Below are positions 19,048 to 46,221 of a stretch of DNA of 64,000 nucleotides, one piece after another (position 1 is the stretch's first letter; each line of letters begins with the position of its first letter). Location of the stretch: contig CAYNNZ010000002.1 of the NCBI GenBank assembly GCA_964398815.1, positions 207 to 64,206 of the forward strand, given 5' to 3'. Position numbers and translations under genes: made by a program. Source of the stretch: an uncultured Candidatus Saccharibacteria bacterium. Lineage in GTDB: Bacteria > Patescibacteriota > Minisyncoccia > Phycocordibacterales > Phycocordibacteraceae. The notes beneath the pieces are model-generated. The model was given only the letters and a program-made list of their open reading frames with translations, was not told the origin of the DNA and did not search any database.

Positions 19048-19130
19048 GATGCGAGGCACGGGAGGAAGGGCGATGGAGACGTATAGATGATACGACGACG
19101 GAGCCCTGAGGGCCCCGTAACGACGCAGAT
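19048..19130 (+). repeat. structured intergenic repeat, copy A (REP/MITE-like family)
   Basis: GAUGCGAGGCACGGG...GUAUAGAUGAUACGACGACGGAGCC...GGGCCCCGUAACGACGCAGAUG. It shares the core with copies B to E. Confidence 0.5.
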
Positions 19131-19148
19131 GAATTATCTTTTGGAGGT

Positions 19149-19526
19149 TTAGCTCCCGGCTTGGCCACCCATGCCACTACGTGCCTTTGCGCGACCAGTA
19201 ATCATGCGTCCCAGCATTCCCTGCGACTTCTTGTCACGGCTCTCGGTCTTCTGGTCCTTCTTCATCGGAGTCTGATTCGTGTTCTCCGCGTGGACGTGCT
19301 CCTCAGCCTTTGCCTTCTCCTTTGCCTTGGTCTTCTTGTCCGCCTTCTTTACCTCCTTCTTAGAGACAATCTGCTTACCGCGGTACATGCCCGTGGTCTC
19401 GTCGATGGTGTGCGGAAGACGAAGCGCTCCCGATTCCTTATCGGCAACGACGTTAGTCCCCTTGAGCGCGTGGTGGCTCCGGCGGTTTTTGGTATGCGAA
19501 CTGGTGTGGCGCATTCGTACTGACAT
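19149..19526 (-). CDS. rpmF: 50S ribosomal protein L32 with long Lys/Glu-rich C-terminal extension
   Basis: MSVRMRHTSSHTKNRRSHHALK...LPHTIDETTGMYRGKQ matches the bL32 pattern. Start at the internal Met of the 141-aa track ORF. Confidence 0.75.
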   Translation of the reverse strand: MSVRMRHTSSHTKNRRSHHALKGTNVVADKESGALRLPHTIDETTGMYRGKQIVSKKEVKKADKKTKAKEKAKAEEHVHAENTNQTPMKKDQKTESRDKKSQGMLGRMITGRAKARSGMGGQAGS

Positions 19527-19599
19527 AGGCACAACCCTACCATATGGCCTTATTCCGCGCCACTTATGCCACAAAAACCCTTGCAGAAGGCCGGAAAAG

Positions 19600-19945
19600 G
19601 CGTAAGCATATATCTGGTCGTCCTTGTGCTGCTGAGCGGGACCTCAGCCGGACGGCGTAACCCGGGCATACGCCCACATTAATCGGCCTACATGTGAGGA
19701 AGCCGATGCTCATGACGAAAGACCCGCAACGCGTCAACCGTAAGTCGAAAAGGGGGAACAAGAAGAAGCACGCCGCGAGCCTGAGGGGTAAGCGAAAACG
19801 GTACAAGCCGTACATTCCGGATTCGTAGTCCCGAAAGGACTTTCAGTCCGGTGCACCTTCGGGTGCTCCGAGTCACCATGCGTTGGGTACACGCCCTTAA
19901 GACCATGGGACGGGAGGCCGCCACTGGCGGCCTCTTCCCTTTTTA
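19600..19945 (+). ncRNA. candidate structured ncRNA (~340 nt), unassigned, ending in an intrinsic terminator
   Basis: A 370-bp non-coding gap between two minus-strand genes. Plus-strand terminator GAGGCCGCCACUGGCGGCCUC + UUCCCUUUUUAU at 19903-19945. Several GNRA/CGAA-looped hairpins (GUCCCGAAAGGAC, GCACCUUCGGGUGC). No RNase P, tmRNA or SRP signature could be confirmed by eye. Confidence 0.3.
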
Positions 19946-20527
19946 TGCAGTCGTTTCGAGATGAAGGAACGTCTTGCGATGAATATCACAAGGACCATGT
20001 TCCTTTATAAGTTCGTAGTGCCGCTTGGTGCCGTACCCTTTATGTACCTCGAACTCGTACTGCGGATACTCGAGTGCGAGTTTTTTCATAAGCCTGTCGC
20101 GCGACACCTTCGCAGCGACTGAGGCGAGCATGATGGCGGGAATGAGTGCGTCGCCGCCGATGACTGTTTCCTGTGCGTATTCTGGTGGTGCCTTCAAAGA
20201 GCCGTCGAGATAGACCCTTCCTTCCTCCGGGTTGGGCAATAATTTTCGAACTCCTTTCTGTACTGCGTTACGTACCGCAGGAGCAATCCCGCCTCTGTCT
20301 ATAAGTTCCGCAGAGACGAGCTCAACAACGGCTCGTACATTCCCCTTTTTTATTTCCTCTTGGAGCACGAGGAAAATCGCTTCCCGACGTTTCTCTGAAA
20401 GCTTCTTGGAGTCGTTCAGATTCGTGAACACAGAAAAATCGAATCCCTCGACAACTGCCACGGTTCCTACCGCGACCGGCCCGGCAAGCGGCCCGCGCCC
20501 TGCTTCATCGACACCAAGAATGAACAT
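19943..20527 (-). CDS. rnhB: ribonuclease HII
   Basis: MFILGVDEAGRGPLAGPV..., a canonical RNase HII N-terminus. Start at the internal Met of the track ORF. Confidence 0.9.
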   Translation of the reverse strand: MFILGVDEAGRGPLAGPVAVGTVAVVEGFDFSVFTNLNDSKKLSEKRREAIFLVLQEEIKKGNVRAVVELVSAELIDRGGIAPAVRNAVQKGVRKLLPNPEEGRVYLDGSLKAPPEYAQETVIGGDALIPAIMLASVAAKVSRDRLMKKLALEYPQYEFEVHKGYGTKRHYELIKEHGPCDIHRKTFLHLETTA

Positions 20528-20561
20528 GAGCACAGAATAGCAGTTTTGGTATTGTGTACGT

Positions 20562-23720: not shown

Positions 23721-23766
23721 TATAAGAACGAGGAACCACCTGTTCCAACCGTAAGGAGAGATCGCC

Positions 23767-24108
23767 ATGAGCGATGCCCCGTATACTCGCGAAAAACTGC
23801 AAAGCCTGCTTGCCGGCGCGCGCAATGAACCGGTGCGGCATCCCGTCTTGCAAATCTCCGGCCACTTGAAGTCGCTCGAGGACATGACGCCGGATGCCCT
23901 CAAACGGCACCCGGAGCTCTGCCAAGTCTTCGCCGACTTCGCCAGCCGTTTCGGCAAACTATCCGAGCTGGTCCACGGTCGTCTCCCGGCCGGCACGATC
24001 GAGCGCCCTTCCGCCATCGACGACCCGATGATCGAAGGCGGCGGCAAACTGGCGCACGTGCAGTACGACCCGGAACGAATGCCGGGACTCGCGCGCATGT
24101 TCCGCTAA
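23767..24108 (+). CDS. hypothetical small protein (113 aa)
   Basis: SD AAGGAG 8 nt upstream of the ATG. Followed by terminator hairpin cggcctccctg-ccacac-agggaggccg (24115-24141). GC about 63%. Confidence 0.5.
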   Translation: MSDAPYTREKLQSLLAGARNEPVRHPVLQISGHLKSLEDMTPDALKRHPELCQVFADFASRFGKLSELVHGRLPAGTIERPSAIDDPMIEGGGKLAHVQYDPERMPGLARMFR

Positions 24109-24196
24109 CCGCCTCGGCCTCCCTGCCACACAGGGAGGCCGTGACATTTAGTACCCGAGTGGTATAACCCTTCCACGGCCCTCAGTCAGAAAGGAG

Positions 24197-24612: not shown

Positions 24613-24674
24613 ACTATCCGGCGGCGTCCCTTCCAGGGCGTCGCCGGTCTCTTTTATGCTATTCTCATCCCTAC

Positions 24675-26420: not shown

Positions 26421-26424
26421 GTCA

Positions 26425-26676: not shown

Positions 26677-29600
26677 TTAGCCATCAATCGCAGAGAGTGC
26701 GCGAGTAACCGCCAGCTTCACGCCGGTCGTTCCTGCCGTGTAGGTGGAATCAACTGCGGTCGAGAGCGAAGAGATGACGCGCTCGAGGAAACTTGGGTGG
26801 CAATTCTCGCAGACCTTTGCGATTTCCGGATGTACCGGAGCACCCTCGGTCTTTGCGCGGAACGCATCATCAAGCGCCATAGTCACGTGGGTGATGAACT
26901 CCTCCACGTTGCCGCCGGCCTTGTTGATGTCGCGAATCATGCCGAAGACCGCTTCCTTCTCACCTGCGAGAAGCGCAGTGATGAAGGATGGGACGTCGGT
27001 TGCAACAGGTGCTGCATGCGCGACTGGTGCTGCGTGCGCGATAGGCGCCGGTGCAACTTCCGCAACCGGTGCATGTACCGGAAGCGCAGGGACGAATCCG
27101 TGGTCTGCCTCGCGAGAGAGACCCTTCACGATGTCGTCGATGGTAAGCGCGCCGTTCTGTGCGAGAGACTTAAAGCCCTCGTAGCTTGCGTGTGTGCGTG
27201 CCGGAGCAGCGGCCGGAGCTGCACTATGCGCCACGTGGCGAGGTGCGGGCTCTGAAGCCGGTGCGTGGGTCACATGCGCACCTGCTGGTGCGTGCGAAGC
27301 CGGGATGGCTGCCGCATTGCGCTCTGCTCCATAGCCATGCGTATCGTCAGCATGGACCGGTGCGAGGCCGAGGCGCGCGAGCGCGAACGGTACGACACCA
27401 GCAATGATGAGGTATGCGGCTGCAAGCGATACGAGCGCGAGCATGAGCCAGTAGACTGCCGTACCGACAGGACCGAGGTCGAGACCGGTGTACGGGAGGT
27501 CAGAGAGGTAGACGTAGGTGAGCGGCTCGTCATGCACTATCGGGAGCGAATCAAGAACGATGCGCTGCTCAGTCTCGCGAACGCGGAGCGTTGCGGAACA
27601 GGTGATGACGTCACCGTTGTCGCCGTAGAAGGTTCCTTCATACGTGTACTTGCCCGGACCATTCGGCGAGACGCGGCGAGAACCGCCATCGGAGACGCTA
27701 CCGACTCCCTGATTGATGCGGACATGGTCCACATTGTCACTGTCCCAACGGAGGGTCGCATCTTCCCCATCATCGATGGTAGAAGGCGAAACGCTCATGG
27801 TGCAGGACGGACCAGGACGATGCGTATTCACCGTAACGGTGGTTGCGCAGGTCACGGTTCCGCCAGGACCCGTTGCCGTACCGGTGTAGGTGCGAGAACC
27901 GCCCGGAGTGACCGTGGTCGAACCGCTTGCTACCGGGCTCATAGAGCCGACACCCTGATCGATAACGAAGGAGGTCGCGTTCGAGGTATTCCACGTAAGC
28001 GTTGCCTGACCACCGTTAGAGATTGAGGACGGATTTGCGGAGAGCGAACAGGTCGGGCTCGGAGTCACGACGGTGACCGTTGCCTGACAATCAACGCTGC
28101 CGCCTGCACCTACTGCGTGAAGCGTGTAGGTCATGGTCGAGAGCGGCTGGACCGTACCCGAGCCGTTAAGCACGACGTTCGAGATGGTGATGCCGTTACT
28201 GACCGTTGCAGACGTTGCATTAGTCGTCGTCCACGTAAGGGTCGATGTGCCGCCGTAGTTCACTGACGTCGGTGACGCAGTGAGCGTACAGGTCGGTGCC
28301 GGAGGAGGCGGCTGTACGGTGACTGTGACAACCGTCGGGCACGAGACCGAACCGCCAGGACCTGTCGCCGTGAGCGTGTAGGTCGTAGTCTGCGTCGGTG
28401 TTACCACCTGCGTTCCTGCGGTTGCGACGCCGGTGCCGTTAAGAGCGACAGAGGTGGCATTCGTGGTCGACCACGAGAGGGTCGAAGACGAGCCCTGCTG
28501 CACAATCTGCGGATTCGCCGTGAGCGTACAGGTTGGTGCCGGAGGATTCACGACCGTAATGGTCTTCGTACAGTCGACCGATGCGCCGTTCGCGCCTACT
28601 GCGTGAAGCGTGTAGGTAGTGGTGACGGTCGGTGCGACTGCGAACGAACCTGACGTTGCGACGCTACCCACAGAGCTGATGGTGACGGTCGTAGCGTACT
28701 GAGTCGTCCACGAGAGCGTAGCTGCAGCGCCCTGCGTAATCGTCGACGGAGTTGCCTCAAGCGTACACTGCGGATTGGTCGGCGGGTTCACATAGATGAC
28801 TGCCGTACAATTCGCGCTGCCGCCAGGACCAGAGACCGTGAGCGTGTAGGTCGCGCTCTGGGTCGGTGCGACCTGCACTGAGCCGCCTGCGACCGGCGTG
28901 ACCGGGCCAACGCCAGAGAGGCTGCCCGAGGTTGCATTCACGCTCGTCCATACGAGGGTCGAAGTACCGCCCTGCGTAATAGAGGTCGGGCTTGCCGTGA
29001 GCGTACATGACGGAGGCGGAGGTGCGACCGTAACGACGACCGTTGCGGAACACGGGACGGACTGGCCGCCAGGGCCGTATGCGACGCCCGTGTAGGTAGT
29101 CGTCTGCTGCGGAGTCACCGTGCGTGAACCGCCAGAGACCGGCTGCACAGAACCGACACCCTGATCAATGGTGAACGACGTAGCGTACTGCGTAGACCAC
29201 GAGAGCGTTGCAGATGCTCCCTGCTGGATATTGTTCGGCGAGATGGTGAGCGTACAGACCGGAGGATTCGGCTGAACAACCTGAATGTCGGCCGTACAGG
29301 TCACCTGCTGTCCATCAGCGGAGGTCGCGACGAGCACGTAATGCGTATTTCCGTTCGGAGCTACGACACGTGAGCCGGAAGCCTGCACCTGACCAATGCC
29401 CTGATCAATCGTGATTGTGTTCGCGTTCTGGGTGTTCCAGACGAGCGTAGACGAGTTACCCGAGAGAATCGAGGTTGGGTTCGCGTTGAGCGAACAGGTC
29501 GGTGGCGGTGGTGGCTGATTCACGTTGACCGTTGCGTAGCAGTGCACCGTCTGACCAGTCGCGGACGTTGCGGTGAGGTCATACGTGGTCGTCCAATTCG

Positions 29601-31443
29601 GCGAGACCTGCATGGATGCGCTCGGAGAAACCTGACCAATGCCCTGATTAAGCGTTACGGTCTGCGCATTCTGGGTGGTCCAAGAAAGCGTTGCGGAACC
29701 GCCTGTCGTAATCGAGGTTGGATTTGCCATGAGCGTACACTGCGGCGGCGGCGGCGGCTGATTCACCGTTACGGATGCGTAGCAGTGGATGGTCTGGCCG
29801 TTATTACCTGTAACCGTGAGGTCATAGGTCGTCGACTGCGTCGGAGCGACGATACGAGAGCCGGAGGTCTGCACTCCACCAAAGCTGGTGAGAGAGACCG
29901 AAGATGCATTCTGCGTACCCCACGTGAGAGTCGAAGTGCCGCCCGTAGTAATAGAGGTCGGGCTCGCGGTGAGCGAACAGGTCGGAGGCGGCGGAGGCGT
30001 CGTCACCGTAACGGTCTTGTAGCAGTGCACCGTCTGGCCGGATGCGGACGTAGCCGCAAGGTCATAGGTGGTGGTCTGCGTCGGCGATGCCTGAACGGAG
30101 CCAGAGAGCGATACCGGACCGAATGCTGAGAGATTCACCGTAGCTGCATTCTGGGTGGTCCAAGAAAGCGTGGTGGAGCCACCTGCCTGAATAGTGACCG
30201 GGTTCGCGTTAAGCGTACACGCAGGCGGAGGCGGTGCCTGATTCACGTTGACCGTTGCGTAGCAGTGAATGGTCTGACCATTCGTACCCACGACGGAAAG
30301 GTCATAGGTAGTCGACTGCGTTGGACTAACGATGCGGGAACCCGCGGTCTGCACTGCACCAAAGCTGGTGAGTGTCGCAGAGGAAGCATTCGTCGTTCCC
30401 CACGTGAGAGTCGAGTTACCACCAGAGGTGATGGAAGTCGGGTTCGCCGTCATGGTACACGTCGGAGGATTCGAAGTGACCGTAACCGTTGCGTAACAAT
30501 GGACAACCTGACCATTCGTGCCCGTGACCGAAAGGTCATAGGTAGTCGATGTGTTCGGGTTCACGACACGTGAACCTGAGAGCTGCACTGCACCTACGGT
30601 CGAAAGCGATGCGGAGGATGCGTTCTGAGAGGTCCACGAGAGAGTCGAGGAACCGCCAGACGTGATAGCCGTCGGGCTCGCGGTAAGCGTACAGCTTGGC
30701 GGATTCTGGGAGACCGTAACAGTCGCCGTACAGTGAATGGTCTGACCGTTCGTTCCTGTGACCGAGAGGTCATAGGTGGTCGAGGTGTTCGGATTCACAA
30801 CGCGAGAACCCGAGAGCTGCACTGCGCCTACGGTCGAGAGCGATGCGGACGATGCATTCTGCGTGGTCCAGGAAAGCGTCGAAGTGCCGCCCGCAGTAAT
30901 AGCGGTCGGGTTAGCGGTGAGCGTACATGCCGGCTGCGGAGTGTTCACTGTCACAGTCGCGTGACAATGGACCGTGCCGGTCTCATTCGTCGCGGTGAGT
31001 TCGTACGTAGTGGTATGAGTCGGATAGACGAGGCGAGAGCCGTCGTCAGAAACGCCGCCGATGCCGTTATCGATGCTGACGGTATCAGCGTCAGTCGTGT
31101 TCCAGGTAAGGGTAGCGTTGCCACCGGTCAGGATGGAACCCGGAGTGATGTCGAGATCACAGACAGGAGCAGGCGGAGGGGTCGGCAGGGGCGTAGTGTC
31201 CACCGGAGGTGCAGCCGGAGGTGCCGGCGGCGGAGGAGGAGGCGGGGGCGGAGGTGGGGGTGGCGGAGGAGGAGGCGGGGGCGCGCAGCACGGAGGGCCG
31301 ACCTGGGCCATAACCTGGGAAGGCGTGACGAGACCAGCAGCAAACGCGATACCCATGCCGAGCGTGAAGACCGTAACCACGGTCAAAACGCCGACTAGAA
31401 TCGGCTTCTCCTTGGCGAACGTCACCTGTGTGTTGATGCTCAT
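26677..31443 (-). CDS. giant cell-surface protein (1588 aa) with Ig-like repeats and an internal LPYTG sorting motif
   Basis: From N to C: TM/signal; poly-Pro linker (about 19 Pro); 15 tandem Cys-bracketed Ig-like repeats of about 95 aa (consensus CTLTA.PTSIT.GG.STLSW...TTYDL...G....C.A.V.V); LPYTG at 27484-27498 followed by a TM segment and a ~270-aa Ala/Pro/His-rich plus folded cytoplasmic tail. Confidence 0.8.
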   Translation of the reverse strand: MSINTQVTFAKEKPILVGVLTVVTVFTLGMGIAFAAGLVTPSQVMAQVGPPCCAPPPPPPPPPPPPPPPPPPPAPPAAPPVDTTPLPTPPPAPVCDLDITPGSILTGGNATLTWNTTDADTVSIDNGIGGVSDDGSRLVYPTHTTTYELTATNETGTVHCHATVTVNTPQPACTLTANPTAITAGGTSTLSWTTQNASSASLSTVGAVQLSGSRVVNPNTSTTYDLSVTGTNGQTIHCTATVTVSQNPPSCTLTASPTAITSGGSSTLSWTSQNASSASLSTVGAVQLSGSRVVNPNTSTTYDLSVTGTNGQVVHCYATVTVTSNPPTCTMTANPTSITSGGNSTLTWGTTNASSATLTSFGAVQTAGSRIVSPTQSTTYDLSVVGTNGQTIHCYATVNVNQAPPPPACTLNANPVTIQAGGSTTLSWTTQNAATVNLSAFGPVSLSGSVQASPTQTTTYDLAATSASGQTVHCYKTVTVTTPPPPPTCSLTASPTSITTGGTSTLTWGTQNASSVSLTSFGGVQTSGSRIVAPTQSTTYDLTVTGNNGQTIHCYASVTVNQPPPPPQCTLMANPTSITTGGSATLSWTTQNAQTVTLNQGIGQVSPSASMQVSPNWTTTYDLTATSATGQTVHCYATVNVNQPPPPPTCSLNANPTSILSGNSSTLVWNTQNANTITIDQGIGQVQASGSRVVAPNGNTHYVLVATSADGQQVTCTADIQVVQPNPPVCTLTISPNNIQQGASATLSWSTQYATSFTIDQGVGSVQPVSGGSRTVTPQQTTTYTGVAYGPGGQSVPCSATVVVTVAPPPPSCTLTASPTSITQGGTSTLVWTSVNATSGSLSGVGPVTPVAGGSVQVAPTQSATYTLTVSGPGGSANCTAVIYVNPPTNPQCTLEATPSTITQGAAATLSWTTQYATTVTISSVGSVATSGSFAVAPTVTTTYTLHAVGANGASVDCTKTITVVNPPAPTCTLTANPQIVQQGSSSTLSWSTTNATSVALNGTGVATAGTQVVTPTQTTTYTLTATGPGGSVSCPTVVTVTVQPPPPAPTCTLTASPTSVNYGGTSTLTWTTTNATSATVSNGITISNVVLNGSGTVQPLSTMTYTLHAVGAGGSVDCQATVTVVTPSPTCSLSANPSSISNGGQATLTWNTSNATSFVIDQGVGSMSPVASGSTTVTPGGSRTYTGTATGPGGTVTCATTVTVNTHRPGPSCTMSVSPSTIDDGEDATLRWDSDNVDHVRINQGVGSVSDGGSRRVSPNGPGKYTYEGTFYGDNGDVITCSATLRVRETEQRIVLDSLPIVHDEPLTYVYLSDLPYTGLDLGPVGTAVYWLMLALVSLAAAYLIIAGVVPFALARLGLAPVHADDTHGYGAERNAAAIPASHAPAGAHVTHAPASEPAPRHVAHSAAPAAAPARTHASYEGFKSLAQNGALTIDDIVKGLSREADHGFVPALPVHAPVAEVAPAPIAHAAPVAHAAPVATDVPSFITALLAGEKEAVFGMIRDINKAGGNVEEFITHVTMALDDAFRAKTEGAPVHPEIAKVCENCHPSFLERVISSLSTAVDSTYTAGTTGVKLAVTRALSAIDG

Positions 31444-37536: not shown

Positions 37537-38691
37537 ATGGACATCAAAATCGACCGAAGCGATGAAATGCGACTGCGCGAGGAACTAGCAGCCCGCACCG
37601 ACGCCGAAGCGGCACGCATCAATCGCTATCTGGGCATGGCGGACCTCTCGCGTACTCCTGGCTCCCCGCTTTACGAAATCACCGAGCGCGTGAAGCAGGT
37701 CTCGGGACTCGCCAATTTCGATATTATCGAGATTCCTGAAATCGTCCCGGCCGACATTTCATTCGACCTGTTCGACTTCCCTGCCGACCATCCAGCACGG
37801 AGCACCTCGGACACCTACTACGTGGACGACAAGAACATCCTGCGCACGCACGATACGGTCTTCTGGTACTACTACCTCCAGCATCCGGAAATTAAGGCGC
37901 GCATCGAACGCGGCGAGTCCATGGGCGCGCTCTGCTACGGCAAGGTCTACCGCAAGGACGAGATTGATAGCCGCCACATGAACATCTTCCATCAGCTTGG
38001 TGGCTGGTATATCGCTCCGGAGAGCGAGAAGGTAGAGCCGGAGGACCTGAAGAATGTGCTCGGCGACATCGTGCATGCGGTATTCGGCCCTGACATGAAG
38101 CACCGGGTGAATGACGACACCTTCCCGTACACGGACCCATCCTTCGAAGTAGAGGTGAACGTGGCTGGTACGGCCGCAGAGGGTCCTGCGCGCGGCGAGT
38201 GGCTCGAAGTCCTGGGCAGCGGCATGCCGAAGGCAAGCGTGCTCAAGAAGATGGGTGTCGAGGGCTATCACGGCTGGGCCTTTGGATTCGGCATTGAGCG
38301 TCTCGCCATCATCTCGATGGCACTCCCGGACATCCGTCTCCTCTGGAGCACCGATGAGCGCATCAAGAAGCAGCTGGTGCTCGGGAATGCATTCAAGGAA
38401 GTCAGCAAGTATCCGCCCGTCGTCCGCGACATTTCCTTCATCGTGACCTCGGATTTCACGCCGAATAACTACTTCGACCTCGTGCGCGATGTCGCAGGCG
38501 ACCTCGTTGAGGAAGTAGCACTCTTGGACCGCTACGAAAACGAGGAGAAGTTCGGCGTCGGCAAGCTTTCCTACGCCTACCGCATCACGTACCGGTCCAT
38601 TGATCGCACCCTCACCTCAGAGGAAGTAGATGCGGTCCACAAGAAGCTGGAGGAGGCTACCACAGCCACATACGGCGCCCAGGTACGCTAA
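37537..38691 (+). CDS. pheS: phenylalanyl-tRNA synthetase alpha-like catalytic protein fused to a PheT-type FDX-ACB anticodon-binding domain (single-chain PheRS candidate)
   Basis: Class II core with FPYTDPSFEV and AFGFGIERLAII. A ~105-aa C-terminal extension KYPPVVRDISFIVTSD...LDRYEN...GKLSYAYRITYRSIDRTLTSEEV matches the FDX-ACB domain of PheT / mitochondrial PheRS. Confidence 0.85.
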   Translation: MDIKIDRSDEMRLREELAARTDAEAARINRYLGMADLSRTPGSPLYEITERVKQVSGLANFDIIEIPEIVPADISFDLFDFPADHPARSTSDTYYVDDKNILRTHDTVFWYYYLQHPEIKARIERGESMGALCYGKVYRKDEIDSRHMNIFHQLGGWYIAPESEKVEPEDLKNVLGDIVHAVFGPDMKHRVNDDTFPYTDPSFEVEVNVAGTAAEGPARGEWLEVLGSGMPKASVLKKMGVEGYHGWAFGFGIERLAIISMALPDIRLLWSTDERIKKQLVLGNAFKEVSKYPPVVRDISFIVTSDFTPNNYFDLVRDVAGDLVEEVALLDRYENEEKFGVGKLSYAYRITYRSIDRTLTSEEVDAVHKKLEEATTATYGAQVR

Positions 38692-38761
38692 GTCCTCAGG
38701 GGTAGAAAAAATCCCTGTATTTGCTACTGTTTTAGCATCGGGCTCGGGGAAAAGTGCCGCA

Positions 38762-38840
38762 GGCAAGGCATGGGCAGACAGTAAGCGCAGGCGTATTCCG
38801 TATACGACGGAGCGAGCTGGCGGGGCCCATAACGCAGACT
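38762..38840 (+). repeat. structured intergenic repeat, copy B
   Basis: ...AAGGCAUGGG...GCGUAUUCCGUAUACGACGGAGCGAG...GGGCCCAUAACGCAGAC. Track ORF 38754 reads through it. Confidence 0.5.
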
Positions 38841-38867
38841 GAGACGCTTTTAGCGGGCCCGCACTAT

Positions 38868-40109
38868 ATGCACCTAGAGTTTTTCGCCTATCCCTTTATT
38901 TTCCTCGGACTCTATTTCGAGGTTTTCATGATGCTCACCTTCCTATCGGCTCCTGCCAAGGAACGCCGTGCACGCCCCGCAGTCACTGCCAACACTCCTA
39001 AGGTCGCGATTATCGTCCCTTGCTGGAACGAGGAGAGCACCATCGGCGGCACCGTGAAGTCGCTCCTTGCACTCGACTACCCTGCCGACAAGCTACGTAT
39101 CATCCTCGTGAATGACGGCTCAACCGACAACACACGCTCCGTCATGGACTCCTATGTGGGTAATCCGCAGATTACCGTGGTGCATAAGGAGAACGGCGGC
39201 AAGCACACCGCAATCAATGCAGGAATTGATATCACTACCGACTGCGAATTCATTGGCTGTCTGGACGCTGATTCGTTTGTCGCACCGGATGCACTCCGCG
39301 AAATGATGAGCGCATTCGACGACCCCAAGGTGGGCGCATCGACCCCGGCCATGAGTGTGTTTGAGCCGAAAAATCTCCTCGAGCGCATGCAGAATGCGGA
39401 ATACATTTTTGGCATCGCGCTTCGCCACGCACTCTCAGCGGTGAATGGCATTTACGTAACTCCCGGACCTTTCTCGCTCTATCGCCGCTCAGTTATCGAG
39501 CAGGTAGGCGGCTTCCGTCATGCACACCAGGCAGAAGACATGGAAATGGCACTTCGGCTTCAGAAGGCTGGCTACGAAATTGAGAACGCGCCGCGAGCCC
39601 GCGTCTTCACCAAGGTTCCTCGCCAGGTCGGCAAACTCATCAAGCAGCGCACCCGCTGGACCACCGGATTCCTTAGGAACGTCATGGGTGATTACCGCGA
39701 GATGGTTGGTAACCCTAAGTACGGCATTCTCGGCCTCATGGTGCTGCCGCTCGGGTTCGTGGCGGTACTCGGGGGCGTAGGGCTCTTCCTGCTCGCCATC
39801 CTCATGCTCGGGTCTGACCTCATCCACACCGCAATCGTGACCTCAGGAGTGCCATTCCTCTTCATCATTACCCCACGCTTCTCGGTCGAATGGTTCTATG
39901 CCCCGATGACCTTCATTACGGTCATCAGCTTTGTCGTGATGATTATTTCTACGTCGTTCATCATCATGGGACAATACGTATCACGCACGCGCACCGACCT
40001 CACGATGAGCATATTGGGCTATGCACTTCTCTACGGATTCATTGCGCCGTTCTGGCTCGTGCGTGCACTTACGGATGTGGCGACTAATACCAAACGCGCT
40101 TGGCGCTAA
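38868..40109 (+). CDS. family 2 glycosyltransferase, membrane-integrated (processive synthase-like)
   Basis: DGSTDNT, DAD and QRTRW motifs. N- and C-terminal TM helices. Start taken at MHLEFFAYPF; the track ORF begins earlier inside repeat B. Confidence 0.8.
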   Translation: MHLEFFAYPFIFLGLYFEVFMMLTFLSAPAKERRARPAVTANTPKVAIIVPCWNEESTIGGTVKSLLALDYPADKLRIILVNDGSTDNTRSVMDSYVGNPQITVVHKENGGKHTAINAGIDITTDCEFIGCLDADSFVAPDALREMMSAFDDPKVGASTPAMSVFEPKNLLERMQNAEYIFGIALRHALSAVNGIYVTPGPFSLYRRSVIEQVGGFRHAHQAEDMEMALRLQKAGYEIENAPRARVFTKVPRQVGKLIKQRTRWTTGFLRNVMGDYREMVGNPKYGILGLMVLPLGFVAVLGGVGLFLLAILMLGSDLIHTAIVTSGVPFLFIITPRFSVEWFYAPMTFITVISFVVMIISTSFIIMGQYVSRTRTDLTMSILGYALLYGFIAPFWLVRALTDVATNTKRAWR

Positions 40110-40120
40110 AATAACTACCT

Positions 40121-40816
40121 ATGTTTGAACACATGCCGCTCGCCCTCCGCAACGCGCTCATCGCTTTTGGAATTACCGTTGTCATTATCGGTTCCGTTGT
40201 CTATGCGACCAGTTATCTCGACCGTCAGCGACTCGCAGAACTGACTGCGATACAGAATCAGCTGGCGACCGATACGCTCTCGCTCGAGACCCAGTTCTCG
40301 CTGCTGGAGAACGCTCCCTGCGAGGACATTGTTGCGGGTAACGAGCTCTCTCAGGAGGTATCTGCGCTCGGAGATAGGCTTGCTGGCGCTGAGGAACGCC
40401 TCGGGAACACCAACAAGCAGGTAATCGACCTGAAGAAGCAGTACACTCTCCTTCAGATTCGCGACTACCTCCTCACCCAGCAATTGGCAAAGACCTGCCA
40501 TATCACCCCGACCGTCGCGCTCTATTTCTACTCAAACGTTCCGGGCTCCTGCGAAAATTGCGATCGCGCCAGCTATGCACTCTCCTACCTACGTCAGACC
40601 TACCCCTCGCTGCGCGTCTACTCCTTCGACTACGACCTCGACCTGGGCGCACTCCGCACACTTATTGCGGTTGAAAAGGTGAAGTCCGAATTCCCTGCCT
40701 TTGTGATTAACGGCAAGCGCACCTACGGATTCACGACACTCGAGGACTTCCAGAAGCAGTTCCCGAAGGCTCTGTTTGCCACTTCGACTGCCACCACGAC
40801 AGCGACGAAGAAGTAG
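40121..40816 (+). CDS. hypothetical membrane-anchored protein with CxxC motif (possible thiol-disulfide oxidoreductase-like)
   Basis: N-terminal TM. Coiled-coil segment. PGSCENCDRA CxxC motif. Ends with a Thr/Ala-rich tail. Confidence 0.55.
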   Translation: MFEHMPLALRNALIAFGITVVIIGSVVYATSYLDRQRLAELTAIQNQLATDTLSLETQFSLLENAPCEDIVAGNELSQEVSALGDRLAGAEERLGNTNKQVIDLKKQYTLLQIRDYLLTQQLAKTCHITPTVALYFYSNVPGSCENCDRASYALSYLRQTYPSLRVYSFDYDLDLGALRTLIAVEKVKSEFPAFVINGKRTYGFTTLEDFQKQFPKALFATSTATTTATKK

Positions 40817-40832
40817 GTTATAAAACATAGAC

Positions 40833-40908
40833 GCCGAGATAGCTCAGTTGGTAGAGCAACGCACTTGTAATGCGTAGGTCGCGAGTTCAAATCTCGCTCT
40901 CGGCTCCA
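40833..40908 (+). tRNA. tRNA-Thr (anticodon TGT)
   Basis: GCCGAGAUAGCUCAGUUGGUAGAGCAACGCACUUGUAAUGCGUAGGUCGCGAGUUCAAAUCUCGCUCUCGGCUCCA. Cloverleaf with a 7-bp acceptor stem, GG in the D-loop, anticodon loop CU-UGU-AA, and a TΨC-loop UUCAAAU; CCA is encoded. Confidence 0.85.
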
Positions 40909-40956
40909 CAACAAAAGGTATACCTACTCTGGGCATAGAGACGCTATACTCATACT

Positions 40957-41355
40957 ATGGAGGTACTTCACTGCCTGCAGTGCAGGAATGAGTTACTAAA
41001 ACGTCACCAAAAGAAGTACTGCTCCAATAAATGTCAGGCTGATTTCCAGTATTCCCTTTTTAAGAAAGAGTGGTTGAGTGGCACCCGCACTGTCGTTACA
41101 AAAAATATCTCCGCACACATCAAGCGCTATTTAATCGAAACACATGGGGAGAAATGCATGCAATGTGGTTGGGCCACTAGGCATAGTTTAACTAAAAGAG
41201 TGCCTTTGGAGGCAGACCATATTGACGGAAACTCCGACAACAATTCGAGAAAGAACCTGCGTCTTCTTTGTCCAAACTGCCACTCCCTCACCACCTCATT
41301 CCGTAACCTTAACAGAGGTCGTGGTAGGAATTGGAGAAACAAGCAAGGTGATTAG
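40957..41355 (+). CDS. HNH endonuclease (free-standing) in a low-GC islet next to tRNA-Thr
   Basis: Paired CxxC zinc knuckles (CLQC...CSNKC; CMQCGW...CPNCH) and an HNH core EADHIDGNSDNNSRKNLRLLCPNCH. Local GC about 45% versus about 58% in the flanks. Confidence 0.75.
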   Translation: MEVLHCLQCRNELLKRHQKKYCSNKCQADFQYSLFKKEWLSGTRTVVTKNISAHIKRYLIETHGEKCMQCGWATRHSLTKRVPLEADHIDGNSDNNSRKNLRLLCPNCHSLTTSFRNLNRGRGRNWRNKQGD

Positions 41356-41744
41356 TCCTTCTTACGAAGGTTCTTACGGAAACGCACAATCGTCGCAATG
41401 AGTTGCGACCCCTCAACTGGCTCGCCTGAAGGCTCGTGGCGCGCCACACGCTCGCGCAGAGTGCGGATAAGGCGCGTAAGCGTGCGCTCAGTGGCACGGA
41501 CCACGAGTAGGGTCGTATGCACGAGGTCGTGGGCCACGCGCTCCGCGTTCGACTTCGCGAGGTGATGGAAGAACCCCGCCCAGTCTATGTGGGTAGCCAC
41601 ATAGGAAGCGCGAGTGACCTGACGGTCGAGCTTGCGGCGCATGCCACCCAAGAACCGCACCCCCGTCTTGGTTTCGACGTAGGAGAAGCCTACGAAGGCG
41701 ATAAGGAGGAGGAGCGACGCACCAACTGCGAAGAGGTACGTCAT
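41352..41744 (-). CDS. hypothetical small membrane protein (130 aa)
   Basis: N-terminal TM MTYLFAVGASLLLLIAFVGF, then a basic helical region. Confidence 0.45.
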   Translation of the reverse strand: MTYLFAVGASLLLLIAFVGFSYVETKTGVRFLGGMRRKLDRQVTRASYVATHIDWAGFFHHLAKSNAERVAHDLVHTTLLVVRATERTLTRLIRTLRERVARHEPSGEPVEGSQLIATIVRFRKNLRKKD

Positions 41745-41746
41745 GC

Positions 41747-42331
41747 TTATCCGCGAGCGGAGAAGCGAGCGAATTTAGAAATCTCAACGCGCTCGCCGAA
41801 CTTCTGCGATGCCTCGTCAATGAGCTGCTTGATAGTCTTCCCCTCGTCCTTAATGTAGGACTGATTGAGAAGAACAGAATCGCGGAAATAGCTCTCCATT
41901 TTGCCAGCGAGGATTTTCTCCTGCATCTCTGCCGGCTTATCCTTCACTTCTTCCTGAAATACCGCCATAGCTGCGTCCTTGGCAGCCTGGTCGATTTCGT
42001 CCGACGTGAGGTACTGCGGGTTGGTTGCAGCAACCTGCATCGCGAGCTCGCGTGCGAGCGCCTCGAACTCAGGATTCTTGGAAACAAAGTCAGTCTCAGA
42101 AGAAAGCAGCACCATCGCGCCGATGGCCTTGTCGTGGAGGTACATGCCTACTGCACCTGCACCTATTTCGCGGTCGCTTTTCTTATCCGCTGCCTCAGAG
42201 GAGCGCTTGCGGAGGATAACCTCTGCCTTATCGACGTCACCGCCAGCCTCTTCAAGAGCCTTGCGGCACTGCATGACGGAAAGACCCGTCTTCTCGCGCA
42301 GTTCTTTGACAATATCGATTGAGATTTCCAT
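41747..42331 (-). CDS. tsf: elongation factor Ts (short form)
   Basis: N-terminal UBA-like VKELREKTGLSVMQCRKALEEAGGDVDKA. 194 aa. Confidence 0.85.
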   Translation of the reverse strand: MEISIDIVKELREKTGLSVMQCRKALEEAGGDVDKAEVILRKRSSEAADKKSDREIGAGAVGMYLHDKAIGAMVLLSSETDFVSKNPEFEALARELAMQVAATNPQYLTSDEIDQAAKDAAMAVFQEEVKDKPAEMQEKILAGKMESYFRDSVLLNQSYIKDEGKTIKQLIDEASQKFGERVEISKFARFSARG

Positions 42332-42390
42332 AGGTACTTAGTCTAATGTGTTTTTAAAATTTCTCACTAGGAGACTGTTGAGGGTTTCGG

Positions 42391-42473
42391 GGACGAGGCA
42401 CGGGCGGTTCAGTGAGTAAAACGTATGAGTGATACGGCGCACGAACTGAACGGGACCCGTAACGAAGTGTCCG
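42391..42473 (+). repeat. structured intergenic repeat, copy C (in the rpsB-tsf spacer)
   Basis: GGACGAGGCACGGG...GUAUGAGUGAUACGGCGCACGAAC...GGGACCCGUAACGAAGUGUCC. Confidence 0.5.
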
Positions 42474-42489
42474 GAAGCCTCAACGGCTC

Positions 42490-43200
42490 CTAGCCCTTGT
42501 AGCCGGACTCGAAGGCATCTGCGAGCTCTCCGAGAACGAGGGAGATGGCCGCACGAGATGCATCGTTCGTAACAATCGGGTACGCAGAATCCTTGAGGTC
42601 ACAATCAGAGCTGATGATGCCAATGACTGGGATACCAGCCTGACGTGCCTCCTTCGTTGCATGCGCCTCGTGCTTGGTGTCGACAATGACAAGAGCGTCA
42701 GGACGCTTTGCAAGATTGCGAATACCCTCAAGACGCTCCTCGAGGCGGTCAATTTCGCGATCAATCATGATGCGCTCAAGCTTAGTGTAGATTTTGCCAA
42801 GTTCACCGGACTCGCGCTTTGCGGAGAGGTCAGCAAGACGATCGATGCGCTTCTTGATCTCCGTGAAGTTGGAGATGGTACCACCGAGCCAGCGGCCTGC
42901 GACATACGGCTGGGCGAGGCGCTTTGCAACCTCGCGGACCTGGTCAGATGCCTCGCGCTTGCCGCCTACGAAGAGGACGGTCTTGCCGTCGCGTGCGAGC
43001 GCAGCGATTGCGGTCTTTGCCTCGGCAAGCTGGTCATCGGTCTTCTGCAGATCGAAGATTTCCATACCACCCTTGGCTCCAAGCACGAACGAGCGCATAG
43101 ACGGATGGCGGCGGCTCTTCACCTGAGCAAAATGAGCACCCGCGCCAAATAGACGCTCGATTCCAGCACCGCTCTGGGCGGTAGTCGTTGTTTCTGCCAT
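42490..43200 (-). CDS. rpsB: 30S ribosomal protein S2
   Basis: MAETTT...LFGAGAHFAQ...VLFVGGKREA... matches the uS2 pattern. Start at the internal Met of the track ORF. Confidence 0.9.
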   Translation of the reverse strand: MAETTTTAQSGAGIERLFGAGAHFAQVKSRRHPSMRSFVLGAKGGMEIFDLQKTDDQLAEAKTAIAALARDGKTVLFVGGKREASDQVREVAKRLAQPYVAGRWLGGTISNFTEIKKRIDRLADLSAKRESGELGKIYTKLERIMIDREIDRLEERLEGIRNLAKRPDALVIVDTKHEAHATKEARQAGIPVIGIISSDCDLKDSAYPIVTNDASRAAISLVLGELADAFESGYKG

Positions 43201-43265
43201 AGATAGGAACAGCCTACCACAAGCCTTTTTGGCGTACAATGGCCTCCCTGCCGCCCGCTAGGACG

Positions 43266-44219
43266 TTATTCAGTCTCCTCTGCCGGGCCAACTCCCCCTG
43301 CCTCTGCCGCCGCTTGGAGGGATTCGATGATTGGGTCTATATTCCCGAGCATTATTTTCGGCAGATTATGCCAGGACTCCTTGAGACGATGGTCCGTGAT
43401 GCGGTCCTGAAGGAAGTTATAGGTACGGATTTTCTCTGAACGGTCTCCGGTACCAATCTGGCCCGAGCGCAGATCCGAGTGCTTCTTGGCCTCCTCTTCT
43501 ATGGCGAGTGCCTCGAGCTTAGCAGCGAGGATTTCCATCGCCTTAAGGCGGTTTGCGAGCTGGGAACGCTCGCTTGAGGAACGGACATCGATGCCGCTCG
43601 GCCTATGCACGAGGCGCACTGCCGTCTCCACCTTGTTCACGTTCTGACCGCCCGCACCGCCTGAACGAGTGAATTCCATATCAATATCCGCTGGATTGAT
43701 TTCAACGACTGGCTTCGCGCGAATGGGAAGCACCGCCACCGACGCAGTCGAGGTATGAATACGTCCTGACTTTTCCGTTACGGGGACGCGCTGCACGCGA
43801 TGCACGCCGGTCTCATAGCGAAGTGCGTCATAGGCCTTCGGGGTATCAAATTCGATGGTCATGTCGTCTATTCGGCGAGCCTTCCAGTTCTTACCCTCCC
43901 CATATTTGAGGTACATATCCCGGAGTTCTGTCGCAAATAGTGAGGCCTCATCGCCCCCTGCGGCCGCACGAAACTCGAGTACCACCGCTTTCGGCTTACT
44001 TTCTTCCTCCTTCTCGCGATTCATAATGCGCTCGATATCGGCAAGAATTTCCTCCTGCCGCGCCCTGATGCGCGTCTCGTCTTCTGCTGCCATTTCAAGC
44101 AGGAGTGCGTCCTCTCCGGCGGCCTCACGGCTCGCTGCAAGTTCTTCTTCTAGGCGCTCGAACTCCTCCGCCAGATAGCGGGTCGCATGGTTGTTCTTAA
44201 ATTCGGAGGAGTATTCCAT
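43266..44219 (-). CDS. prfA: peptide chain release factor 1
   Basis: [17 protein letters not shown] (the RF1 PxT motif) and [11 protein letters not shown] (GGQ). Confidence 0.9.
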
Positions 44220-44233
44220 AGGTTGATGATAAC

Positions 44234-44267
44234 AAACGCGCACCCCGCAGAAGCGGGGTGCGCGTTT
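44234..44267. terminator. terminator/attenuator hairpin between rpmE and prfA
   Basis: aaacgcgcaccccgc-agaa-gcggggtgcgcgttt, a perfect 15-bp stem. Confidence 0.5.
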
Positions 44268-44276
44268 GTAGATGCC

Positions 44277-44528
44277 TTATTTCTTTGCCTTAGCGGCGCG
44301 CTGCTTGAAGCGCTCCACGCGACCCGTCTTGTCGAGGGTACGGTCTTCGCCCGTGTAGAACGGGTGCGATGCGCTCGAGATTTCTACGACGTACTTGTCG
44401 TACTCCTTACCCTCAAAAGTCGCCTTTTCAGTGGTGCGGATGGTGGAGCCGATAAGGTAACGCTCCCCCGAGGACATGTCCTCGAAGAGTACGGTGCGAT
44501 AGTCGGCCGGGTGCGTGTCCTTTTTCAT
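44277..44528 (-). CDS. rpmE: 50S ribosomal protein L31 (type B, non-zinc)
   Basis: MKKDTHPADYRTVLF...SSASHPFYTG matches bL31. Confidence 0.85.
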   Translation of the reverse strand: MKKDTHPADYRTVLFEDMSSGERYLIGSTIRTTEKATFEGKEYDKYVVEISSASHPFYTGEDRTLDKTGRVERFKQRAAKAKK

Positions 44529-44593
44529 GTCGCCTGACTATACCCCACCACCCCCAGCAATGCAACGCATAAGCCTCTCAAAATGGCCTAAAG

Positions 44594-44668
44594 ACAAGGC
44601 GCGGGAGGGAGATTTTCGTAGACGTATGGGGTATACGGCGGAGAAAATCGACGGGCCCCGCAACGCAG
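44594..44668 (+). repeat. structured intergenic repeat, copy D
   Basis: ...AAGGCGCGGG...GUAUGGGGUAUACGGCGGAGAAAAUC...GGGCCCCGCAACGCAG. Confidence 0.45.
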
Positions 44669-44689
44669 TATTTTTGACATTTTGCAGGC

Positions 44690-46036
44690 TTATCCGCCCA
44701 AGGTGTCGATATCTGACTGATACTGAGCCGCAAAATCCATCACGCTATTGGCATAGGCCTGACCGGCCGTAGCCCAATTCCCTCCTGCATAGTATTTCGC
44801 AGCTGCGGTGTGTTCCGCGTTATAGGAGCCACCGGCACCCCCTACGGCCGAGAGGTAGAGACCCGTCGCGGTAATGGCATGGAGCGGATTCCATGGGTCG
44901 GCCGCTGAAATACCCAACGCCTTCTCTATTTGCGGCTTAAGTCCAATCCACGTGGATGGGATGAACTGAGTCGGACCCATGGCGCCACCATATCCATTCC
45001 CCTGAGGACAGGAGACGGCCGTTGTTTTCCAGTCGCGCCCGAGGTCATCCATGATGGTCTTGAACGGGACGGTGTCGCGCGGCGACTTCATGACCCCTGT
45101 CGCTGCGTTTGAGTTTCCTGTTCCAAAGCCGGTCGCGAGGTCGGTCACATAGCACCTGCCCACGTTCGAACCGAGATTCGACTCCTGTCGCAAAATGGCA
45201 AGAATGAATGCCGCCCGCACTCCGGTAATACGTGATGAGGTCTTTGCGTATTCAATAGCGGTTGGGAGCGGTATCTGACCGCCACCACCTGCAAGTGCGA
45301 ACAATTCCGAACGAATCTGCGCGGCAGTCTTCTGCTTCGTCGCAACAATCTGCTGATACAGATTCTCCTGTCCCTTGGTAGCAGTGAGTAGCTGCTGCTT
45401 AGCATTCTGTTGATCCTGAACTTTCTTCTTTGCCTCCAGCTGCAGCTGCGCCACCTGCTGCTGCTGCTTACGCTGCTCTTCCAGCTCATCCTTTTCCGCC
45501 TCAGCCTGCAACTTCGTGCCAGTAATGACTTCATAGGAATCCCCAAGCGACTGCTTCACGAATGCGTACGAGTCGAGGTCCCCGAACAACTTGCTGATGT
45601 CGTCTGCAGAAAACGCGAGCTCGACGAGAGACATATTGTCGATTTCTTCGGTACGGCGAAGTATCTGCGCAAGCGACTCTTTCTCGTTCGAGAGCTTGGT
45701 TGAGAGCGACGTGATGGTCCTCTGATGTACGGAAATATTCGAATCAATCTGCTTGATGGCGACCTGAGTGGCCTGCACCTGCAGCTGCGCCTTCTTGATC
45801 TGTGCATTCAGTGTCGCAACCTCGGTCGAAAGCGACTTACCCTGCGAAGCAAGCTTGTCGACCATCGCCTGGTTCTCAGCGATTTCAGACTCGAGCTGGT
45901 TCAACTGGCTCTGCAGCTGCGCGCGCCGGTCGTCGGTCGACTGCGCGAACAGCACATGCGGCAGGACTGCACCTGCGGTAAGCGCAATGATGAGAATGCC
46001 TACGAATAGGGCTGGTAGAGAGAACCTGAGGCGCAT
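44690..46036 (-). CDS. secreted coiled-coil protein with C-terminal lytic transglycosylase (MltB/SLT_2-like) domain, paralog 1
   Basis: Signal/TM. About 230 aa of Gln/Glu-rich coiled coil. C-terminal LRQESNLG...GGAMGPTQFIPSTW...YYAGG. About 75-80% identical to 56549..57907. Confidence 0.7.
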   Translation of the reverse strand: MRLRFSLPALFVGILIIALTAGAVLPHVLFAQSTDDRRAQLQSQLNQLESEIAENQAMVDKLASQGKSLSTEVATLNAQIKKAQLQVQATQVAIKQIDSNISVHQRTITSLSTKLSNEKESLAQILRRTEEIDNMSLVELAFSADDISKLFGDLDSYAFVKQSLGDSYEVITGTKLQAEAEKDELEEQRKQQQQVAQLQLEAKKKVQDQQNAKQQLLTATKGQENLYQQIVATKQKTAAQIRSELFALAGGGGQIPLPTAIEYAKTSSRITGVRAAFILAILRQESNLGSNVGRCYVTDLATGFGTGNSNAATGVMKSPRDTVPFKTIMDDLGRDWKTTAVSCPQGNGYGGAMGPTQFIPSTWIGLKPQIEKALGISAADPWNPLHAITATGLYLSAVGGAGGSYNAEHTAAAKYYAGGNWATAGQAYANSVMDFAAQYQSDIDTLGG

Positions 46037-46059
46037 ATCTTGTATATTCTAGCAGACGT

Positions 46060-46096
46060 AAAAAGAGCCGATTCCTTGCAGAATCGGCTCTTTTTA
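46060..46096 (-). terminator. Rho-independent terminator downstream of rplY copy 1
   Basis: aaaaagagccgattc-cttgcag-aatcggctcttttt. Confidence 0.5.
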
Positions 46097-46130
46097 TCTA
46101 CCTGGGCGCCTGAAGACGCAGAAATATTTT

Positions 46131-46220
46131 GGATGCGAGGCGCGGGAAATTTCTGAGCGCAGGCGTATTCCGTATACGACGGAGCGAGGAAATGGGTCCC
46201 GCAACAACGCAGACAGGATG
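46131..46220 (+). repeat. structured intergenic repeat, copy E (absent from the paralogous locus at 57908-57986)
   Basis: GAUGCGAGGCGCGGG...GCGUAUUCCGUAUACGACGGAGCGAG...GGGUCCCGCAACAACGCAGAC. Track ORF 46129 reads through it. Confidence 0.55.
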
Positions 46221-46221
46221 T

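Follow-up and report, generated by a model that had tools for sequence, protein, structure and literature searches.

A lineage-specific family of structured palindromic elements at gene ends in Paceibacteria/Minisyncoccia, folding on the antisense strand

Introduction

Integron attC sites are hairpins of 57-141 nucleotides (nt), conserved in structure and variable in sequence, which are situated at the 3' ends of genes and often overlap the stop codon; the strand which is folded and used is the complement of the coding strand of the gene. Repetitive extragenic palindromes (REPs) are found no more than 20 bp from the stop codon of an upstream gene, in the gaps of co-directional or convergent gene pairs, where TAG is provided by their ends; the published REPs of GTAG type touch or supply stop codons (PMC3733652). 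The hairpins of REPINs are thought to act as single-stranded DNA, and some of them possess flanking A and T runs (PMC3337134). A 64,000-nt stretch of Patescibacteria DNA (positions 207 to 64,206 of contig CAYNNZ010000002.1, assembly GCA_964398815.1; this whole stretch is called the window hereafter) contains five copies of a structured repeat, which were noticed in a first-pass annotation and are followed up here. They belong to a lineage-specific family of imperfect-palindrome elements of about 126 nt in the Patescibacteria class Paceibacteria/Minisyncoccia. Among structured palindromic repeats of gene ends the family is unusual for its deep conservation, for a core like that of an RNA and for folding on the antisense strand; full-text literature searching found no description of this element.

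Identification and distribution of the element

The pattern AGGCRYGGG-N10-30-CGTAT-N5-ATACGRCG matched the window five times, always on the plus strand (match starts 19054, 38766, 42396, 44597 and 46138), and had no match in 100 shuffles, in agreement with the five plus-strand copies first reported. The apical palindrome CGTAT-N5-ATACG is confined in the window to the same five places. A covariance model was built from 85 copies and run on the window with filters off. It recovered exactly five copies at 88-110 bits, everything else scoring 12 bits or less. The unit had been given as about 80-90 bp, which is too short: printing of the flanks revealed that pairing carries on outward on both sides, and the full unit measures 122-131 nt.

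Two possible degenerate copies had been proposed at about 10670-10790 and 14100-14170. The model, again with filters off, gives nothing there at E<=10, and the sequences at 10691-10723 and 14122-14148 were rejected as family members, being plain perfect or near-perfect hairpins of 11-12 bp. These two hairpins resemble conventional terminators.

For the distribution of the family, the pattern was run on one genome per species. It was found in 85 DNA stretches, nearly all of them from Patescibacteria and often several from one genome, with the host labels Parcubacteria, Paceibacteria, Kaiserbacteria, Wolfebacteria, Nomurabacteria, Yanofskybacteria and Minisyncoccia. The covariance model confirmed 104 matches in the scanned loci. 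The family occupies about 79 loci, spread over about 45 Patescibacteria genomes, and as many as five copies stand in one 8-kb locus. Beyond the five copies of the window, about 100 more have been found in Paceibacteria/Minisyncoccia genomes. Proteins identical to those of the window also occur on metagenome contigs. Pattern matches in six loci of Planctomycetaceae, Chryseolinea, Prevotella, Alloprevotella, Gemmatimonadetes and Acidobacteriota were set aside as chance, the model finding none of them, and so were six matches in viral contigs, none of which fits the model.

The search of the whole window with Rfam at gathering scores passed one tRNA alone and no copy of the element, and at E<=10 over 38000-47000 no match overlapped any copy. 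The initial impression that the repeat fits no recognised family is thus upheld at both thresholds.

Conserved fold and covariation

Each unit is a single long, irregular hairpin capped by one apical loop. From the outside inward, the outer stem is variable; next come a run of A:U pairs in which A is always 5' and U 3', then a short stem and the conserved duplex CAGAUGC/GCAGAUG, which contains tandem G·A pairs, and after it a purine-rich internal loop, also conserved, in which N-AGGC stands opposite AAC-RAN. Further inward come the RYGGG/CCCRY helix, a GGG bulge and a hypervariable stem rich in G·A pairs. The apex is the hairpin CGUAU-N5-AUACG, closed by G-C and a covarying A·G/G·A pair. Divergent subtypes too retain the best conserved parts, which are CAGAUGC-N-AGGC in the 5' arm and YAAC-RAN-GCAGAUG in the 3' arm. 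The architecture first described (AGGC loop, RYGGG/CCCRY, CGUAU-N5-AUACG, GGGNCCC and AAC) was seen again on alignment and RNAalifold analysis of the five window copies, and the covariation reported among them, ACGGG/CCCGU, AUGGG/CCCAU and GCGGG/CCCGC, is real.

The structure of 44 pairs was scored on a plain MAFFT alignment not fitted to the model, with slid partners as controls. In this alignment 80.4% of cells pair as compared to 36-43% with slid partners, and the covariation score is 0.46 against 0.20 or less. The alignment of 102 distinct copies fitted to the model, whose figures lean toward structure on account of that fitting, shows pairing in 86.8% of cells (32-45% slid), double changes in 41 of the 44 pairs and a covariation score of 0.59 (0.12 or less for the controls). 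The apical stem was fixed by the search pattern; in variants found by the model it covaries too (CGUAC/GUACG, CUUAC/GUAAG, UGUAC/GUACA). Selection for structure, which had been proposed from five copies, receives overwhelming support from about 100.

Mutual information revealed that several positions regarded as unpaired are in fact helical. The tandem G·A position alternates with Watson-Crick pairs, and the RYGGG/CCCRY helix gains one extra covarying pair, leaving the GGG bulge. Beside the apical stem, 43 copies have an A·G pair and 40 a G·A pair, and G·G and A·A are almost never found; this exchange shows structured non-Watson-Crick pairs. Pseudoknot or tertiary pairs were not detected by mutual information, which gave merely helix extensions and purine-purine pairs.

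Three variants, at L070 1754-1940 (minus strand), L046 6996-7163 (plus strand) and L034 3353-3483 (minus strand) of the scanned loci, keep the basal motifs and carry in their upper part an additional hairpin or other module of 52-96 nt, suggesting branched subtypes or nested insertions. Two copies of one genome, L009 4455-4591 and L030 5611-5749, have a near-identical upper half (ACGAGCGAAGTAGGCGTATGTGCTATACGACGGATGA) on different basal and outer stems, a hint that modules may be exchanged or converted between copies.

The strings CCCGCAACG and CAGAUGA of the family consensus (alignment A5) resemble parts of E. coli 4.5S RNA, the RNA of the signal recognition particle (SRP). This likeness was treated as coincidence, the Rfam models having no match at E<=10. 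SRP RNA and Ffh were undetected in Parcubacteria in a 2015 paper (PMC4508563).

The strand probably under structural selection

Strand statistics were collected from the paired columns of 101 copies, the displayed strand being the purine-rich folding strand. On this strand 309 cells are G·U or U·G and 103 are A·C or C·A, and 299 are G·A or A·G as against 31 C·U or U·C. The excess of G·U is present in every helix taken separately. At column pair 35-103, for example, 40 copies have G-C, 24 A-U, 20 G·U and none A·C. The displayed strand is the more stable one in 101 of 101 copies (mean -53.8 against -41.7 kcal/mol), and 73% of its unpaired positions are purines. The opposite asymmetry would be expected from the strand-specific mutation biases known for transcription and replication, and therefore the purine-rich strand is taken as the one under structural selection. 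The other strand, which is the messenger RNA (mRNA) sense, showed no consistently open frame, its best frame being open in 51 of 98 copies.

Position at stop codons and orientation

Long open reading frames (ORFs) were called around 101 distinct copies and the loci were oriented by the folding strand. For 83 of the 101 copies, an opposite-strand ORF of at least 70 codons terminates inside the final 2-21 nt of the model. The stop codon of this ORF falls at the extremity of the outer stem, except in ten cases, where it falls in the T-run. The next gene typically starts 5-35 nt past the other end of the element. With the element written as E, the arrangement '<E<' was found 54 times, '>E<' 16 times, '<E>' 8 times and '>E>' 5 times, and 70 of the 83 classifiable copies lie between co-directional or convergent genes. 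About 85-90% of copies follow one rule, namely that the element stands directly past a stop codon with its folding strand antisense to that gene. Such antisense folding is not accounted for by any known family of elements.

These data modify three statements of the first-pass annotation. The statement that all copies are intergenic nearly holds, but the stop codon, together with the last codons in some copies, belongs to the outer stem. Their occurrence on one genome strand regardless of gene orientation holds in the window and fails across about 100 copies, where the folding strand is mostly antisense to the gene of the stop codon; the window pattern is a local accident of a mostly minus-strand region. 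Orientation is not independent of the genes either, the ratio of '<E<' to '>E>' indicating a strong tie to the upstream gene. Where gene-linked and regional (replication-linked) orientation disagree, five cases follow the adjacent gene and four the regional majority, and in mixed regions 22 copies are antisense and 7 sense to the adjacent gene.

The stops at occupied sites are TAG in 39 copies, TAA in 39 and TGA in 5, for a background of 30%, 37% and 33%, respectively. TGA is depleted, at 6-14% of occupied stops against the 33% of background. The upstream genes are diverse housekeeping genes, with 98 Pfam families in 82 genes, and include those for S18, S2, S4, L25, L32, DnaB, SecY, GyrA, sigma-70, NDK and Pth. 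Ribosomal proteins, EF-Ts, RF-1, PheRS and other housekeeping functions are encoded by the neighbouring genes, which are syntenic.

Gain, loss and age of the copies

An empty site was identified at 40107-40121 of the window by alignment of L001, L002 and the window. The related strain L001, whose flanks are about 93% identical, carries a sixth copy of 123 bp exactly there (model match at 15627-15763, 108 bits). It lies between the stop codon of a glycosyltransferase gene and the next start, with the folding strand antisense to that gene. The window has a spacer of 11 nt at this site, and an 11-nt spacer to the next ATG is retained in L001. Whole units are gained or lost as blocks between relatives.

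The site past the gene for ribosomal protein S2 was surveyed in 80 metagenome loci encoding S2 relatives of 60-86% identity. An element stands immediately past the S2 stop codon in 9 of the 80, always antisense, and for most occupied loci the closest relatives have an empty site. Unoccupied loci usually bear in its place a small hairpin, rich in G+C and in many cases with a T-run behind it. In the closest filled and empty pair the gene is 88% identical and the spacer unalignable. The small rpsB-tsf hairpins of L092, L095, L096, L100, L103 and L104 have their wobble pairs on the mRNA strand, the opposite of the element.

Some copies at the same site are clearly orthologous, with 72-93% identity. 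They differ by compensatory double changes and by intermediates, of which 12 are G·U and 3 A·C. Other same-site copies are as unlike each other as random members of the family. The mean identity is 54.5% within a genome (maximum 83%) and 55.7% between genomes. The family is therefore old and diverse and turns over at the level of sites, with patchy occupancy of the S2 site and no recent bursts such as are typical of MITEs or REPINs.

Copies and neighbouring genes in the window

All five plus strands, folded as RNA, give -42 to -69 kcal/mol (z -2.9 to -9.7), and their complements are weaker in every case, by 4.5-19 kcal/mol. Their outer stems are unlike one another.

Copy 1 (19024-19154, plus strand, 131 nt, 99.2 bits) lies between rpmF (L32) and a nusB-NUDIX gene, both on the minus strand and identified by Pfam. 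The stop codon of L32 (TTA on the plus strand, 19149-19151) and its last codon are within the 3' arm of the outer stem, and the fold energy is -56.2 kcal/mol (z -7.7) on the plus strand and -36.9 on the minus strand. Copy 2 (38739-38861, plus strand, 123 nt, 90.9 bits; -51.1 against -40.6 kcal/mol) is the single sense-oriented copy of the window and belongs to the about 10% of exceptions to the antisense rule. It lies 46 nt past pheS (plus strand), after a small hairpin of pheS itself at 38697-38717, and a glycosyltransferase gene starts just downstream at about 38868.

Copy 3 (42367-42493, plus strand, 127 nt, 87.8 bits) is positioned between the minus-strand genes rpsB (S2) and tsf (EF-Ts). 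It has CTAG at each end, the S2 stop codon TAG being the CTA at 42490-42492, and folds at -68.8 kcal/mol (z -9.7) against -50.1 for the minus strand. Copy 4 (44569-44693, plus strand, 125 nt, 94.8 bits; -42.4 against -37.9 kcal/mol) separates two minus-strand genes, one for a protein of 448 aa with a weak SLT-like match and rpmE (L31), and the stop codon of the former (TTA, 44690-44692) is within the final pairs of the outer stem. Copy 5 (46112-46233, plus strand, 122 nt, 110.5 bits) lies between rplY (L25/TL5) and the same 448-aa gene, again both minus. Its AGGC is at 46138-46141, GCGGG at 46142-46146 pairs with CCCGC at 46198-46202, and the apical hairpin occupies 46164-46178. The L25 stop codon (TTA, 46222-46224) is in the T-tract and the last three L25 codons make up the 3' arm of the outer stem; the energies are -56.6 (z -7.4) and -41.6 kcal/mol for the plus and minus strand, respectively. 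The 448-aa gene (44690-46036, minus strand), between L25 and L31, is flanked on each side by a copy in the same orientation.

A few other features of the window and its relatives may be recorded. PheRS is encoded at 37537-38691 (plus strand) as a single chain of 384 aa with a class II core and a C-terminal ferredoxin-fold anticodon-binding domain. Such a monomeric layout is known from mitochondria, the usual bacterial enzyme being alpha2-beta2. The gene at 18016-18954 (minus strand) is a NusB-NUDIX fusion, and at L066 3576-6443 (minus strand) a leucyl-type class I aminoacyl-tRNA synthetase has a NUDIX domain inserted past the editing domain. The minus strand also has two very large ORFs, at 26677-31443 (1,588 aa) and at 47939-52612 (1,557 aa); the counterpart of the latter on a related contig, where the gene is called, has a CARDB domain. 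Comparable large putative adhesins have been reported for Parcubacteria (PMC4508563).

Interpretation of the element

The reading ranked first, with a probability of roughly 0.4, is a REP/REPIN-like structured palindromic element which would be recognised as a folded single strand. It is placed first because the genomic behaviour of the element matches that of published REP families. Presence at 3' gene ends and stop codons and presence or absence between strains is also the part of the proposed likeness to REPs, bacterial interspersed mosaic elements (BIMEs) or miniature inverted-repeat transposable elements (MITEs) that stood. The reading says how the element may work, by analogy, and does not establish it as a REP/REPIN or classical MITE. 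The elements would be selfish or partly domesticated palindromes. Their folded single strand, either DNA or RNA from the minority of sense copies, would be bound by a conserved trans-acting protein, putatively at the invariant purine-rich loops. The orientation bias could then arise from counter-selection of the strongly folding strand in mRNA, where it would set a hairpin of about -54 kcal/mol right beside a stop codon, within operons. Its complement would be tolerated there, being weaker by about 12 kcal/mol and having a mismatched base.

Several results weigh against this reading. A Y1/HUH transposase was sought with a hidden Markov model (HMM) of three Y1 transposases, and none better than E=1 was found among 8,603 ORFs in the 1.17 Mb flanking the elements; the search covered sequence around the elements, and REP-associated tyrosine transposases (RAYTs) are distant from the IS608 TnpA. 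Within the same scope, the 85 loci around elements contain no multicopy ORF or transposase-like cluster. Clustering of the ORFs near elements gave no recurrent non-housekeeping neighbour and recovered housekeeping families alone, e.g. aminoacyl-tRNA synthetases, ABC ATPase, FtsA and FtsZ. The outer stems are not conserved terminal repeats for the binding of a transposase, because a single genome has copies with unlike stems; what recurs is GAG...CTC and the A/T run alone. A duplication of TA at the ends is only suggestive. There is no sign of recent bursts or of a master sequence, copies within a genome being no more alike than copies of different genomes. The compensatory, G·U-biased change at single sites points to constraint at each locus, i.e. 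a host function of the antisense strand, and is left unexplained by a selfish element. The class-wide asymmetric core, the compensatory evolution at individual sites and the lack of near-identical copies fit such a function at least as well.

A new functional nucleic-acid structure on the strand complementary to mRNA, Paceibacteria-wide and read by a lineage-specific protein, can be put forward tentatively as the next best reading. It could be a folded single-stranded DNA site for a structure-specific recombinase or nuclease targeting stop-codon boundaries, with a logic like that of attC applied to core genes. Other forms that would fit are a hairpin complementary DNA made from mRNA 3' ends by a reverse transcriptase, and a direction-dependent transcription valve. 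Reverse transcriptases are common in these bacteria. If a host function is the true one, the compensatory and G·U-biased evolution at the same site reflects function at each locus and not selfish spread.

Somewhat more doubtful is a cis-acting RNA of the host on the antisense strand, serving as a one-way terminator or insulator. A polymerase opposing the upstream gene would meet a strong hairpin and U-run, sense transcription would read through the weaker complement, and G·U and G·A pairs would be selected as stabilising one strand only. The asymmetry of stability in all copies and the compensatory substitutions in same-site copies agree with this, as do the conserved A:U pairs with U on the 3' side, the U·G and tandem G·A at the base of the hairpin, and the ordinary small hairpin which element-free S2 relatives bear at the site. 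Most copies are moreover within operons, where read-through is required. Against it, the conserved A:U run is short, A- and T-runs averaging 3.2-3.4 nt (T-runs 3.3 nt) and being equal on both sides, and no difference between A-run and T-run length was found between gene contexts. A terminator scan called 0 of the 5 window copies. Canonical terminator function is not demonstrated in either direction, because the runs are short, equal on both sides and independent of context. Co-directional gene pairs offer no evident source of antisense transcription. No conserved motif, such as a promoter, was found in the 130 nt upstream or 110 nt downstream; the information content is about zero both over the 90 nt preceding the outer stem and in the flank downstream, and one sigma-70-like site was found in the 9 kb scanned, away from any copy. 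Nor does termination need an ornate conserved core of 100 nt.

An action in the mRNA of the upstream gene, similar to that of REPs, is unlikely and is disfavoured by the wobble asymmetry. The complement of the folding strand would be a protective 3' hairpin or attenuator, or would bring stop and start close together for translational coupling. It does begin at the stop codon and end 5-35 nt short of the next start, the polymorphic site keeps its spacer of 11 nt before the following ATG, the place is that of the small hairpins of relatives, and the mRNA-sense strand still folds at about -42 kcal/mol; REPs offer a precedent (PMC3733652). Read on the mRNA strand, however, would-be G·U pairs are three times rarer than would-be A·C, column pair 35-103 gives 20 against 0 in the wrong direction, and the conserved loops are 73% pyrimidine.

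With still lower probability the element would be a classical MITE, mobilised in double-stranded form by a DDE transposase of IS630/Tc1-mariner type. Insertion would be at TA, and the copies to survive would mostly be those whose TA is part of a stop codon restored by the terminal purine of the element. Many well-preserved copies do read TA-GAG...CTC-TA, those at the S2 site mostly TA(G/A)...TA, and the enrichment of TAG/TAA with depletion of TGA at occupied stops and the whole-unit presence or absence between relatives are in line with it. RUP, Correia and ERIC elements are similar in size and hairpin shape. The variable termini within a genome around a conserved interior are nevertheless the reverse of a MITE. 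Only about 40% of the ends on either side have TA nearby, with 8 of 99 copies having it at both, and near-identical copies are absent, as is any transposase or multicopy ORF around the elements. Symmetric terminal repeats cannot explain an orientation bias of about 15:1 at stops. The filled and empty pair of L001 and the window has diverged flanks and so cannot show a target-site duplication, and a search for split elements flanking an ORF with loose half-site patterns returned noise only.

Least probable is the dispersed family of independently transcribed small RNA genes that had been suggested at first: the RNA-like architecture, the purine-rich conserved loops and variants with an extra branch such as those of L070 and L046 speak for it, but the flanks hold no promoter-like motif, most copies are wedged between a stop and the next start with too little room for a promoter, and the outer stem covaries including the stop codon of the neighbour, so that such an RNA would need to start and end outside the element.

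Patescibacteria are tiny symbionts whose genomes are about 1 Mb or less with almost no spare DNA, yet some of them keep up to five units of 126 nt within 8 kb. The element is either an unusually long-lived selfish palindrome or part of an unrecognised machinery of gene expression or genome maintenance, in a group that is not yet genetically tractable. The covariance model provides a searchable handle for finding a partner protein by co-occurrence, for annotation of gene ends and for tests of a one-way signal.

Comparison with known systems

Like REPs and REPINs, the elements are dispersed extragenic palindromes close to where the upstream gene ends, for the most part between genes that run in the same direction or converge, with stops touched or supplied; long hairpins with flanking A and T runs and persistence over long evolutionary times are further points in common. 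Unlike REPs and REPINs, the element is one continuous hairpin of 122-131 nt and not a REP of 20-40 nt or a doublet of inverted REPs. It has no terminal GTAG or CGTC tag, its GYAG motifs being internal only; a RAYT gene, which in REP systems is single-copy and as a rule has the repeats around it, was not found in the 1.17 Mb around elements, and there is no population of near-identical sequences around a master within a genome. The ornate asymmetric core conserved across a whole bacterial class and the strong antisense rule of orientation also set it apart.

With Correia/NEMIS, RUP, ERIC and BOX it has in common hairpin units of 100-150 bp in many copies, intergenic and overlapping gene ends. 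As in bacterial MITEs, copies are present or absent between strains and many ends are flanked by TA. It differs from them in having a conserved interior and variable termini, copies as divergent within as between genomes, a class-wide rather than genus-wide distribution, and covariation of the kind seen in functional RNA.

Intrinsic (bidirectional) terminators are likewise hairpins with a 5' A-run and a 3' T-run directly past the stop, and the element sits where relatives have small terminator-like hairpins. It is distinguished from them by a stem-loop of about 100 nt with conserved internal loops, by T-runs as short as those noted above, whereas an intrinsic terminator is a compact G+C-rich hairpin with a U-rich tract of about 5 or more right behind it, and by the better hairpin lying on the strand antisense to the gene.

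In contrast to integrons, no integrase is among the called genes nearby, the consensus is without the RYYYAAC/GTTRRRY core sites of attC, and the neighbours are syntenic housekeeping genes in place of cassettes. What the element shares with attC sites is a hairpin conserved in structure at the 3' end of a gene, lying over the stop codon, with the folding strand complementary to the coding strand.

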